A stretch of 64,000 bases of DNA from Caulobacteraceae bacterium. GTDB lineage: Bacteria; Pseudomonadota; Alphaproteobacteria; Caulobacterales; Caulobacteraceae. The stretch lies in the NCBI GenBank assembly GCA_947478785.1, contig CANJXI010000006.1, positions 14,961-78,960 of the forward strand, read 5' to 3'. The position numbers were made by a program, and so were the translations under genes. The first letter of the stretch is position 1. Each line of letters begins with the position of its first letter. Below the pieces are notes generated by a model. That model had not been told where the DNA came from. It saw nothing but the letters and a program-made list of their open reading frames with translations, and searched no databases. Below, in pieces: positions 2,942 through 9,214 of this stretch.

Positions 2942-4663
2942 CTAGGTTCCCGGGGCGGCGAAGACCGAGATTTGCCGGCCCCGATAGAGTGGCCGCCACG
3001 CCGCCCCGACAATCGGATGGTCACCCTGCGCCAGCACGGTGGCGTAGGGAGCGGCCTGCCAGCCGAGGACATGTTCGCCCGGCGCCGCCAACAGCATGTG
3101 GGGATGCCCCGCGAACCGCAGGAAGACGATCCTGTCGATGTTGGGGTCGTCGGTGATGGCCAGGACGGGTCCCTGGCGCGCGGCCAGGATCGCCTGCGCC
3201 CGTGAAAGGTCGTGGGCGAGGTCGCGTCGGCCCGGGCCCGCCGCGTCGACCCAGAGCCGGTCGGCCGCCGTGGACAGAAGCGCGAGCGCCAGGACATAGG
3301 CCTGCCAGGCCCGCGCCATCGGCGCCCTGGCCAGCATCGCCAGCCCCACGGCGAAGGTGGCCGCGACCGCCAGCGCGCGATAGGGCAGGGGCGCGGCCAG
3401 GGCGAAGCGTCGCGGGTCAGACCGGAAGAAGGCCGTCAGCGCCGCCGAATCCCAGGGAAACAGCACCACGCCGGCCCGAAAGACCGCCAGCAGCCCCGCC
3501 AGGCCGGCCAGCACGACGGCGCAGGCCGCCACCGGCCGGCGCCAGCCCCGCGCCAGCCCCACGAACGGCGCGGCGGTCAGCCACAGCAACGGCGCGAAGA
3601 ACTCCACGTAGCGGCCCAGCAGCCGCCCCTGCTCGCTCTCATAGGCGCTGGCCCTGAAGGTGAACGCCGCGACCATGGCCAGTGTCGCCACGAGACTGAG
3701 CAGCACCAGCAGGAAGGCGCGTTCCGGTCCCTCGGTCGGCGGGCTGGCGCGCGCGCGCCAGCGGGAGAAACGAGCGCCAAGCCCGGCGAGGATCGGAACC
3801 CCGGCCAGCACCGCCATCAGGCTCGCCAGGCCCGCAAGCGTGGTCAGGGTCAGGCCGATGGCGTCTCGCGCCGGCCGCCCGGCGAGCAGGCCGGAATACA
3901 AGGGGGCCTCGAAGAACACCAGCGGTCCGGGCATCGGCTGGTGCGCAAGGGTCTGGATAAGCCAGCCGGCGCCGAAATAGGTGGGCAGCAGGACGCCCAG
4001 CCGAGCGGCGGCGAGGCCGATCCTCTGCTCGCCAAGCATCGCCTCGATGAGGGGAAGGGCGGCCAGGGCGGCCGCCATCGCGAGCCCCTGCGGCTTGATC
4101 AGCGTCAGCACCGCCGCGAGCACGCCAGCCAGCAACGCGTGGACGACCGGCCGGCGAGCGTAGAGCCGGTCCGTGGCGAAGACCACCAGCCCAAGCCCGC
4201 CCACGTACCAGCCCTCGGGCAGGGCGCTGAGCACGAAGCGCCAGTTGGGGAACAGTAGCGCCAGGAGCAGCACGCTCCAGGCCGCGCCGGCCGACAGGCC
4301 TCGACGCACGCAGGCCCAGGTCAGACCAATCCCGCCGAGATAGGCCGCGAGGCTGGCGGCGCGGATCCAGGGCAGGCCCGGTCCGGCGAGGCCGGCCACC
4401 GCCCGCAGGACCGCGAAATAGGCCGAGTTGGTCACCGAGCCTACGCCCGGATCCAGGGTCGGATCGGCCGCCAGCGCCGCGCCATGCAGGGCGCGGGCGA
4501 GGTAGGTTCCCTCGTCGAAGGCGTACAGGGGCAGGGGATCGACCAGCCGCCCGGCGTAGAACACCAGCACGGGCGCCGTGGCCAGGATCACGGCCGCGCT
4601 GAAGATCCATCCAAGGAGGGCGCGGCGCGGGCCGCCCGGTTGGGGCTGGTCGTTGGCGTTCAT
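2942..4663 (-). CDS. Polytopic membrane protein, possible GT-C (ArnT/PMT-like) glycosyltransferase
   Basis: Many hydrophobic helices; acidic FDEGTYL motif after the first TM; start ATG 4663. Confidence 0.6.
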   Translation of the reverse strand: MNANDQPQPGGPRRALLGWIFSAAVILATAPVLVFYAGRLVDPLPLYAFDEGTYLARALHGAALAADPTLDPGVGSVTNSAYFAVLRAVAGLAGPGLPWIRAASLAAYLGGIGLTWACVRRGLSAGAAWSVLLLALLFPNWRFVLSALPEGWYVGGLGLVVFATDRLYARRPVVHALLAGVLAAVLTLIKPQGLAMAAALAALPLIEAMLGEQRIGLAAARLGVLLPTYFGAGWLIQTLAHQPMPGPLVFFEAPLYSGLLAGRPARDAIGLTLTTLAGLASLMAVLAGVPILAGLGARFSRWRARASPPTEGPERAFLLVLLSLVATLAMVAAFTFRASAYESEQGRLLGRYVEFFAPLLWLTAAPFVGLARGWRRPVAACAVVLAGLAGLLAVFRAGVVLFPWDSAALTAFFRSDPRRFALAAPLPYRALAVAATFAVGLAMLARAPMARAWQAYVLALALLSTAADRLWVDAAGPGRRDLAHDLSRAQAILAARQGPVLAITDDPNIDRIVFLRFAGHPHMLLAAPGEHVLGWQAAPYATVLAQGDHPIVGAAWRPLYRGRQISVFAAPGT

Positions 4664-4694
4664 CCGCCAGCGTCGCCGCTGCATGAGGGTCGGG

Positions 4695-5255
4695 TCAACG
4701 GGAGATGCGGATGTCGCGGACCCAGCCGCCGGCCGCGCCATTGTCCGTCGCCATCACGTCGGCGGGGTCTTCGGCGTCCATCAGCTTCAGTAGACGCGCC
4801 CGCGCGCGGTTCACCCGGCTCTTGATGGTGCCGAGCGCGCAGCCGCAGATCTCGGCGGCCTCCTCGTAGGAAAGCCCGGCCGCGCCCACCAGGATCAGGG
4901 CTTCGCGGTGTTGGTCGGGCAGCTTGCGCAGCGCCGCCCGGAAGGCGCGCATCGCCACGCTCCAGTCCTGGGTCGCGGGCGTCGACAGCGCGCCAGCATA
5001 CTCACCGGCCTCGTCGCGCACCTCGCGGCGGCGGCGCAATATCTGACTGTAGTAGGTGTTCCGCAGGATCGTGAACATCCAGGCCCGCAGATTGGTGCCC
5101 GGCTCGAACCTGTCGCGGTGGCTCAACGCCTTGATCAAGGTGTCCTGGACCAGGTCGTCGGCGTCGGCGCCGTTGTGGCAGAGCGACCAGGCGAAAGCCC
5201 GCAACGCCGGGATCAGGCCGACGATATCGTCGCGCCAACTGGACGTCGCGGACAT
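4695..5255 (-). CDS. ECF sigma factor, EcfG/SigT/SigU general-stress type
   Basis: IPALRAFAWSL..ADDLVQDTLIKA..GTNLRAWMFTILRN (region 2) and LSYEEAAEICGCALGTIKSRVNRAR (region 4); ATG 5255 preceded by GAGG. Confidence 0.93.
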   Translation of the reverse strand: MSATSSWRDDIVGLIPALRAFAWSLCHNGADADDLVQDTLIKALSHRDRFEPGTNLRAWMFTILRNTYYSQILRRRREVRDEAGEYAGALSTPATQDWSVAMRAFRAALRKLPDQHREALILVGAAGLSYEEAAEICGCALGTIKSRVNRARARLLKLMDAEDPADVMATDNGAAGGWVRDIRISR

Positions 5256-5313
5256 CGCATCCTCAATCGTCCCTTGCCTGGGACAGTTGAAAGGCTCCTC
5301 CAGAGGCCGGGAA

Positions 5314-5338
5314 AACGTCGGCGCTTTCCTTCCGTTCC
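5314..5338 (-). promoter_or_regulatory. EcfG/SigT-type promoter for the ECF sigma gene
   Basis: Minus strand GGAAC (5338-5334) - 16 nt - CGTT (5317-5314), exact match to the established GGAAC-N16/17-CGTT motif. Confidence 0.8.
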
Positions 5339-5371
5339 GGCGCCTCGCCGCGGCAAAACATCGCGGAATGC

Positions 5372-5396
5372 GGAACTCCATGAGCCGCATGGCGTT
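5372..5396 (+). promoter_or_regulatory. EcfG/SigT-type promoter for egtB-egtD fusion
   Basis: Plus strand GGAAC (5372-5376) - 16 nt - CGTT (5393-5396). Confidence 0.72.
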
Positions 5397-5468
5397 GGCG
5401 CGGACGGTGCGAGTGCTTAGCTGTGCATTCGCGTCGGGGCCCGTGTCCAACGGGACCACGCCAAGGGG

Positions 5469-7690
<2,222 letters not shown>

Positions 7691-7694
<4 letters not shown>

Positions 7695-7903
7695 GTCTCG
7701 CGGCCGCGCGAACGGCCGCCGCCCCGGCTGGCTTCACCGCCCTTGCGCCCGGCCGCGGCGGCCAGGTCGCGGTCCTTGGCGAAGGAGCGTTTCTCGCTCG
7801 GAACGCTTGCGCCGCCCTTGCGGGCGATCTCGCGGCGACGCTCGGGATTCATGGCGGCGAATCCTCGACGGGCGCGGGGCTTGTCTGTCTCGACGCTCGG
7901 CAT
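7691..7903 (-). CDS. KGG-repeat general stress protein
   Basis: RRGFAAMNPERRREIARKGG..AAAAGRKGG; RBS GAGGAG. Confidence 0.9.
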
Positions 7904-7938
7904 TTTTTCTACTCCTCGAGTGGGCGTTTCGCGGGACT

Positions 7939-7964
7939 AACCAACGAGGCCCAGTCAAGGTTGC
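7939..7964 (-). promoter_or_regulatory. Imperfect EcfG-type promoter for KGG gene
   Basis: GCAAC (7964-7960) - 17 nt - GGTT (7942-7939); one mismatch in each element. Confidence 0.4.
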
Positions 7965-7981
7965 GTAGAAAAGGGTGCGAC

Positions 7982-9214
7982 CTATTCGCGCCTCAGCGCT
8001 TCGATCGGATCCAGGCGCGCCGCCCGCCAGGACGGATAGGCCCCGAACACCAGGCCCACGAGCATCGAAAATCCCAGGGCCAGTGGGCCAGCCCAGGCGG
8101 GCACCGCGGCCGGCCAGGATCCTAGTTTGGCGATGCCGATGGCGCCCAGAACGCCGATCGTCAGTCCGATCAGCCCGCCCACCAGCGAAAGCGCCACCGC
8201 CTCGACGGCGAACTGGATCAGGATGTCGGCCCGCCTTGCGCCCACCGCCATGCGCAGGCCGATCTCGCGGGTCCGTTCGGTCACCGCCACCAGCATGATG
8301 TTCATGATGCCGACCCCGCCGACCACCAGCGACACCCCCGCCACGGCCGCCAGCAGGACCGTGAAGGTGCCGATCGCCGCCTGACTGGCCTGGAGGATGG
8401 AGGCCATGTTCTGGGTCGCGAAATCGTCGTCGTCGCCGGCCTTGATCCGATGCTGGTCGCGGATCAGGTTGGTCACATCTTCCTGAACACGGTCCAGGCT
8501 GTCGGCGTCGGAGGCCTTCACATAGATGGTCTGCACCGCGTCGGCGCGGGTCCGCCGCCCGGTGATCCGCGAGCGCACGGCCCCGATCGGGCCCAGCACC
8601 ACATCGTCCTGGTCCTGGCCAAAGCCCGACTGGCCCTTGGACGCTAGCACGCCGATCACCTCGAAGGGCACGCTGCGCACCCGCACGCGCCGGCCGAGCG
8701 GGTCGACCTCGCCCCACAGCTCGCGGGCCACCGTGGCGCCGACCACCAGCACCTTGCGGCCCTGGCGGGCCTCGCGCTCGTCGAACATCCTGCCGGACGA
8801 GAGGGTCAGGTCGCGGGCGTCCAGATAGGCCGGGGTAACGCCTTCGATGCGGGTGTTCCAGTTGGCCCCCTCGGCGGCCAGCTGGGCCTGGCCGCGGACC
8901 ACCGGCGCCACGGCCACCACATCCTCCACCTGCTTGGCGATCGCCTCGGCGTCCGAATCCCGCAGGCTCAACCCCTGGCCGCCGCCGCCGCTGACGAAGC
9001 CGCCGCCGCGCTGGAAGTTCGGCGAGACGATGATCAGGTTCGAGCCCAGACCCGCGATGGTGTCCGTCACCCGCTTGGACGCGCCCAGGCCGATGGAGGT
9101 CATCATCACCACGGCGGCGACGCCGATCACCACCCCCAGCGAGGTCAGCACGCTGCGCATCGGGTGGGCGATGATCGCGCCCACCGCGAACCGGACCAGT
9201 TCCCACAGTCTCAT
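7982..9214 (-). CDS. ABC transporter permease, MacB/FtsX type
   Basis: RSVLTSLGVVIGVAAVV; GIMNIMLVAVTERTREIGLRMAVGA; AARLDPIEALRRE. Confidence 0.93.
   Translation of the reverse strand: MRLWELVRFAVGAIIAHPMRSVLTSLGVVIGVAAVVMMTSIGLGASKRVTDTIAGLGSNLIIVSPNFQRGGGFVSGGGGQGLSLRDSDAEAIAKQVEDVVAVAPVVRGQAQLAAEGANWNTRIEGVTPAYLDARDLTLSSGRMFDEREARQGRKVLVVGATVARELWGEVDPLGRRVRVRSVPFEVIGVLASKGQSGFGQDQDDVVLGPIGAVRSRITGRRTRADAVQTIYVKASDADSLDRVQEDVTNLIRDQHRIKAGDDDDFATQNMASILQASQAAIGTFTVLLAAVAGVSLVVGGVGIMNIMLVAVTERTREIGLRMAVGARRADILIQFAVEAVALSLVGGLIGLTIGVLGAIGIAKLGSWPAAVPAWAGPLALGFSMLVGLVFGAYPSWRAARLDPIEALRRE

Follow-up and report, generated by a model that had tools for sequence, protein, structure and literature searches.

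How the synthesis of ergothioneine, an antioxidant thiol, is tied to the general stress response (GSR) of a Caulobacteraceae bacterium, and to which of its sigma factors, is the question raised by a 219-bp intergenic region at 5256-5474 of the window, i.e., the whole 64-kb stretch of DNA that was analysed. The region separates two divergent genes and contains an exact GGAAC-N16-CGTT motif on each strand, as had been described in the sequence-only reading; both were found again, at 5314-5338 on the minus strand (GGAACGGAAGGAAAGCGCCGACGTT) and at 5372-5396 on the plus strand (GGAACTCCATGAGCCGCATGGCGTT), and no further match exists in the window. The reading preferred here, with a probability of about 0.8, is that these are two divergent EcfG-type promoters and that the genes which they face, a fused egtBD and an orphan EcfG-like sigma gene, are outputs of the GSR.

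Both sites have the architecture of an EcfG-type promoter, in which a -35 box GGAAC and a -10 box CGTT are separated by 16-17 nt, here 16 nt in each case. In the sigma-facing promoter the -35 box covers 5338-5334 and the -10 box 5317-5314, in the egtBD-facing promoter the boxes are located at 5372-5376 and 5393-5396, and the -35 boxes are, as first noted, 33 bp apart (5338 to 5372). Each site lies on the strand of the gene downstream of it and at promoter distance, with 58 nt separating the -10 box from the sigma ATG (5255) and 78 nt separating the other -10 box from the egtBD ATG (5475). For the sigma-facing promoter a transcription start site at approximately 5305-5308 and a leader of approximately 50 nt are predicted, for the egtBD-facing promoter a start at approximately 5402-5405 and a leader of approximately 70 nt. 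That the egtBD 5'UTR contains a riboswitch or leader RNA was considered and rejected, as an Rfam search of the intergenic region returned no relevant element and the fold of the 5'UTR has a z-score of -0.78 compared to shuffled sequences.

The gene on the minus strand (4695-5255) starts with an ATG at 5255, preceded by a GAGGA Shine-Dalgarno sequence, and encodes a protein of 186 aa (P0001) that was assigned by Pfam, NCBIfam and tree as an EcfG-like sigma paralog of the ECF15 type. It contains the Pfam domains Sigma70_r2, Sigma70_r4_2 and PhyR_sigma2 (1.5e-12), and its best NCBIfam matches are the alphaproteobacterial models PRK12546/12547, at scores under the equivalog cut-offs. P0001 thereby possesses sigma-70 regions 2 and 4 of the EcfG/PhyR type, as is characteristic of ECF15 sigma factors, but the nepR-ecfG operon beside phyR that also characterizes this group is missing, and there is no room for a nepR gene between the sigma-facing promoter and the sigma ATG. 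Downstream of the sigma gene, on the same strand and overlapping or abutting its stop codon, lies a gene (2942-4741) for a protein of 599 aa (P0003) with many predicted membrane helices. A role of P0003 as anti-sigma factor or other partner in the module was rejected, as it has no Pfam or NCBIfam match and is not a neighbour of the sigma gene in nine relatives.

On the plus strand the second box faces the genes for ergothioneine synthesis in the orientation and at the distance originally described, although egtB and egtD are not two genes here. They form a single fused ORF of 741 aa without internal stop (P0002, translated from 5469), which is placed at 5475-7694 and starts either with the ATG at 5475, which follows AAGGGG, or with an ATG at 5469. 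Residues 25-426 correspond to the sulfoxide synthase EgtB and residues 439-739 to the histidine methyltransferase EgtD. With 575 bits against TIGR03440 (EgtB; curated cut-off 360) and 388 bits against TIGR03438 (EgtD; curated cut-off 291) both halves of this one ORF are identified at equivalog level, and the Pfam domains are DinB_2, FGE-sulfatase and Methyltransf_33. Fusions of egtB and egtD are found widely across phyla, and both fused and separate forms occur inside the family Caulobacteraceae. In several of the split cases the egtB frame continues past one in-frame TGA or TAG close to the junction; the cause may be a sequencing error or a fusion or fission of recent date.

As to the sigma factor, it had been claimed that one box faces an EcfG-type sigma gene, which is correct for the domains of the protein; by sequence comparison, the gene is an orphan EcfG paralog and not the master EcfG linked to phyR and nepR. 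P0001 shares 73-81% identity with the egtBD-adjacent sigma factors of relatives and approximately 48-50% with their phyR-linked EcfG, the latter being found divergent from and adjoining a full PhyR in all five relatives analysed (Phenylobacterium, Caulobacteraceae). In a maximum-likelihood tree the egtBD-linked sigma factors form a clade of their own (84/93), while the phyR-linked EcfGs (98/98) and further paralogs are placed in a separate clade (97/99). Moreover, the alignment shows that the egtBD-linked sigma factors do not have the C-terminal extension of approximately 25 residues (GSYERDG...AGDAM..ILADAERLS) that is common to the phyR-linked EcfGs and the other paralogs. In regions 2.4 and 4.2 they are very similar to the phyR-linked EcfGs, a likeness that is suggestive only as to whether the paralog is bound and inhibited by NepR and recognises GGAAC/CGTT.

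The assembly (147 contigs, 92% complete) contains neither PhyR (NF006623) nor NepR (PF18557), and P0001 is its only EcfG-like sigma factor. The phyR-nepR-ecfG locus most likely sits in an assembly gap between the contigs C34 and C20, because by synteny with four relatives the genes that flank their kinase-ecfG-nepR|phyR locus map to approximately 70-3,700 of C34 and 900-8,000 of C20, which in both cases are contig ends. A genuine loss of PhyR, NepR and the primary EcfG was rejected, as these positions of the flanking genes are better explained by the gap.

The motif class marks a real regulon in this genome, in line with the initial reading of it as a general-stress signal. GGAAC-CGTT with a spacing of N16 or N17 is intergenic in 29 of 43 cases compared to 25 of 138 for the spacings 12-15 and 18-21 (Fisher p = 3e-9), the whole-genome share being 18/26 for N16 and 11/17 for N17. 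For this tally genes were called crudely from GC3 (3,459 genes, 86% coding), and the two sites studied here were counted as intragenic in it, as the gene caller had over-extended the sigma ORF. Among the genes located 20-100 bp downstream of the motifs are those for a DUF883 protein, a Gly-zipper lipoprotein, a protein with a BON domain and topoisomerase IB, as well as two PAS/GAF-HWE histidine kinase genes, of which one precedes a receiver gene, a gene for a low-affinity iron permease and several genes for small membrane proteins. Such a set is typical of the general stress response in Alphaproteobacteria.

The arrangement is conserved in the family. Of 201 genomes sampled across the family, 72 encode the egtBD-linked sigma type, which is represented in 19 of 27 genera. 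For at least 52 of the genomes the coordinates place the sigma gene and egtB(D) adjacent and divergent. EgtB(D) was found in 161 of the 201 genomes, i.e., in 69 of the 72 sigma-positive versus 92 of the 129 sigma-negative genomes (p = 1.3e-5). Among 29 fetched family loci, 21 have egtB(D) as the divergent neighbour of the sigma gene, 24 carry the sigma-facing box and 15 carry both boxes. Conservation of the motif upstream of egtB in relatives, which had been proposed as a check, was observed in 16 of the 21 family loci that have egtB(D) as divergent neighbour. In nine of the 15 loci with both boxes the -35 boxes are 34-37 bp apart, similar to the window; other spacings among the family loci are 15-26 bp, and one locus has a fully overlapping palindrome. 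In an alignment of the divergent control region of the window with those of four relatives essentially only the two GGAAC and the two CGTT boxes are kept, while the surroundings of the boxes diverge. Outside the family the best matches to the paralog among 300 class-level genomes reach at most 58% identity and none is located beside egtBD, and the paralog was thus rejected as occurring there; most of these outside-family matches have a promoter box approximately 290-370 bp upstream of the sigma gene, leaving room for nepR.

Across genera the sigma-facing promoter shows the extended consensus C-GGAAC-G.A.G......G...G-CGTT (loci L117-L146, L010, L012 and L013), which none of the remaining regulon promoters in this genome showed and which could represent either an extended -35/spacer preference or an overlapping operator. 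Four loci of one sub-clade (L131, L134, L137 and L138) have a conserved palindrome, CCTATATGG / CCATATAGG, between the divergent -35 boxes; it is absent from the window and might be a regulator binding site.

The egtBD-facing motif, judged from its distribution, does not depend on an adjacent sigma gene. In a survey of 80 egtBD loci from many phyla, in which the 500 bp upstream were scanned on the egtBD strand for the strict motif, 16 of 40 alphaproteobacterial loci and none of 40 others contained it (Fisher p = 5e-6). Five of these 16 are from Caulobacteraceae and eight from Bradyrhizobium; the remaining three come from Methyloceanibacter, an Acetobacteraceae MAG and another alphaproteobacterial MAG. 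Four of the five Caulobacteraceae loci lie beside the sigma gene, and the fifth, from a Caulobacter sp., as well as all non-Caulobacteraceae loci among the 16 carry the motif upstream of egtBD without it. As 24 of the 40 alphaproteobacterial loci contain no strict motif, the link between motif and egtBD is not universal.

A link between the GSR and ergothioneine is already known, since EcfG-dependent egtB/egtD were shown in two sphingomonads, published as such for one and contained in the data for the other. In Sphingopyxis granuli TFA egtB and egtD belong to the direct GSR regulon, which was defined from dRNA-seq data on a double mutant in ecfG1 and ecfG2 together with the motif GGAAC-N16-CGTT; EcfG2 drives ecfG1 and the same promoters are read by both sigma factors (de Dios et al., 2020, Sci Rep, PMC7083833). 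The window locus resembles this system, as far as its sequence tells, in the motif class and in the ergothioneine genes as GSR targets, and the presence there of two paralogous EcfG sigma factors of which one drives the other provides a further likeness. In contrast, egtB and egtD of S. granuli TFA are separate and not located beside a sigma gene, while here they are fused and divergent from an orphan paralog, and ecfG1 is part of a nepR2-ecfG1 operon, while the window paralog has no nepR. In Sphingomonas melonis Fr1 a 'TIGR03440 family protein' (log2 -4.0) and an adjacent methyltransferase (-3.9) belong to the most strongly EcfG-dependent genes (Gottschlich et al., 2019, Sci Rep, Table 1, PMC6599016). 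That paper does not call them ergothioneine genes, no linkage to a sigma gene exists, and the motif is weaker (GCAAC...GCT, score 6.6); topoisomerase IB, a target within the EcfG regulon of S. melonis Fr1, is likewise preceded by the motif in the genome analysed here.

Within the Caulobacteraceae, the orphan paralog sigU of Caulobacter crescentus was shown to be 16-fold SigT-dependent and to possess a SigT motif (Britos et al., 2011, PMC3073932), which is similar to the window in that an EcfG-like paralog without nepR has an EcfG/SigT-type promoter. Orthology to SigU is not favoured by the tree, in which the Caulobacter-type second paralog (G005_b) is located outside the clade of the window paralog. 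EgtB is absent from a control Caulobacter vibrioides genome, and in a literature search no paper was found that links ergothioneine to regulation in Caulobacter. Back-to-back GGAAC-N16-CGTT pairs are also found at the canonical divergent phyR | nepR-ecfG locus, with offsets of approximately 39-43 bp in the relatives; however, the canonical pair drives phyR and nepR-ecfG, whereas the pair in the window faces a biosynthetic enzyme and an orphan sigma gene.

Taken together with these systems, the 219-bp region would act as two divergent promoters read by RNA polymerase with a sigma factor of the EcfG type. When general stress sets in, PhyR~P would capture NepR and the primary EcfG would be set free. 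The EcfG holoenzyme would then start transcription near 5403 on the plus strand to give fused EgtBD, which is expected to form hercynine and its cysteine sulfoxide adduct en route to ergothioneine, so that more ergothioneine would be made, and near 5307 on the minus strand to express the orphan sigma gene. The orphan sigma factor probably reads the same boxes again, because its DNA-recognition regions are near-identical or similar to those of the primary EcfG, and would thereby boost its own expression and that of egtBD in a feed-forward loop or positive feedback. This branch is likened to SigT acting on sigU in Caulobacter and EcfG2 acting on ecfG1 in Sphingopyxis. For the use of the promoters the primary EcfG and the paralog are, by sequence, both candidates.

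Two other explanations were weighed. If the motifs were chance matches or non-functional relics, egtBD and the sigma gene would have to use other, unrecognised promoters. The bare number of motifs is indeed weak evidence when taken alone, because at least two matches were also reached in 7 of 100 shuffles of the 64-kb window (mean 0.44). Their placement in one intergenic region is not weak evidence: both lie within 219 bp and each is aimed at its gene, and the chance for any of the approximately 3,460 intergenic regions of the genome to hold one motif per strand is approximately 0.005, based on a genome-wide total of 43 strict N16/N17 matches (3.95 Mb). The boxes are furthermore the sole conserved blocks in orthologous regions that have diverged across many genera, and as an alternative for these genes a sigma-70 promoter was rejected, since a promoter scan of 4600-8100 returned no sigma-70-like site. 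An accident of sequence is therefore highly improbable.

More serious, albeit still unlikely, is the explanation that both promoters are used chiefly or exclusively by the adjacent paralog, in a self-contained and autoregulated sigma-egtBD unit that perhaps answers to a specific oxidative or thiol signal and is largely insulated from PhyR-NepR-EcfG, the likeness of the motif then being due to shared ancestry. It would account for the retention of the divergent pair in many genera, for the rarity of the sigma factor in genomes without egtB(D), for the separate clade without the C-terminal extension and for the extended signature of the sigma-facing promoter that sets it apart from the rest of the regulon. 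Against such insulation, approximately 29 other intergenic GSR-type promoters in the genome have exactly this core motif, egtBD is preceded by the same motif in lineages without the paralog, egtB/egtD depend on ordinary EcfG sigma factors in both sphingomonads (PMC7083833; PMC6599016), and paralogous EcfG sigma factors share promoter specificity in known cases (PMC7083833). Motif conservation and the sphingomonad data thus favour the reading of egtBD and the orphan sigma gene as general-stress outputs, and the proposal that ergothioneine synthesis is such an output, already made from the sequence of the window, gains support from both.

The locus is a well-supported and fairly ordinary example of stress control, and what is known about the working of EcfG promoters is not altered by it. 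Comparative evidence is added that ergothioneine synthesis would be a recurrent output of the alphaproteobacterial GSR (Caulobacteraceae, Bradyrhizobium and others), so that the evidence now extends past the two sphingomonads for which expression data exist. The only fresh element, and a modestly new one, is the conserved module of orphan sigma factor and egtBD in the Caulobacteraceae, which suggests, for one orphan EcfG paralog family, a function that can be tested. As a tentative proposal, which we regard as rather doubtful, the sigma factor beside egtBD may represent a Caulobacteraceae-wide EcfG paralog subfamily whose job is to run, together with egtBD, a dedicated ergothioneine branch that could act as feed-forward amplifier or as separately gated oxidative-stress switch. 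If true, one class of the 'spare' EcfG paralogs, the roles of which are mostly unknown, would gain a definite physiological output.

Other back-to-back EcfG-type pairs occur in the same genome at C20:838-891 and C32:37273-37300. The latter is one overlapping palindrome, GGAACG...CGTTCC, that can be read both ways, and the relative L140 likewise has an overlapping-palindrome design in place of the promoter pair with an offset of 34 bp. Finally, identical 26-nt copies of the motif (GGAACATAGCTGGACATCTCGCCGTT) are found at C69:21941-21966 and C133:4708-4733, which suggests a duplicated segment or redundant contigs.
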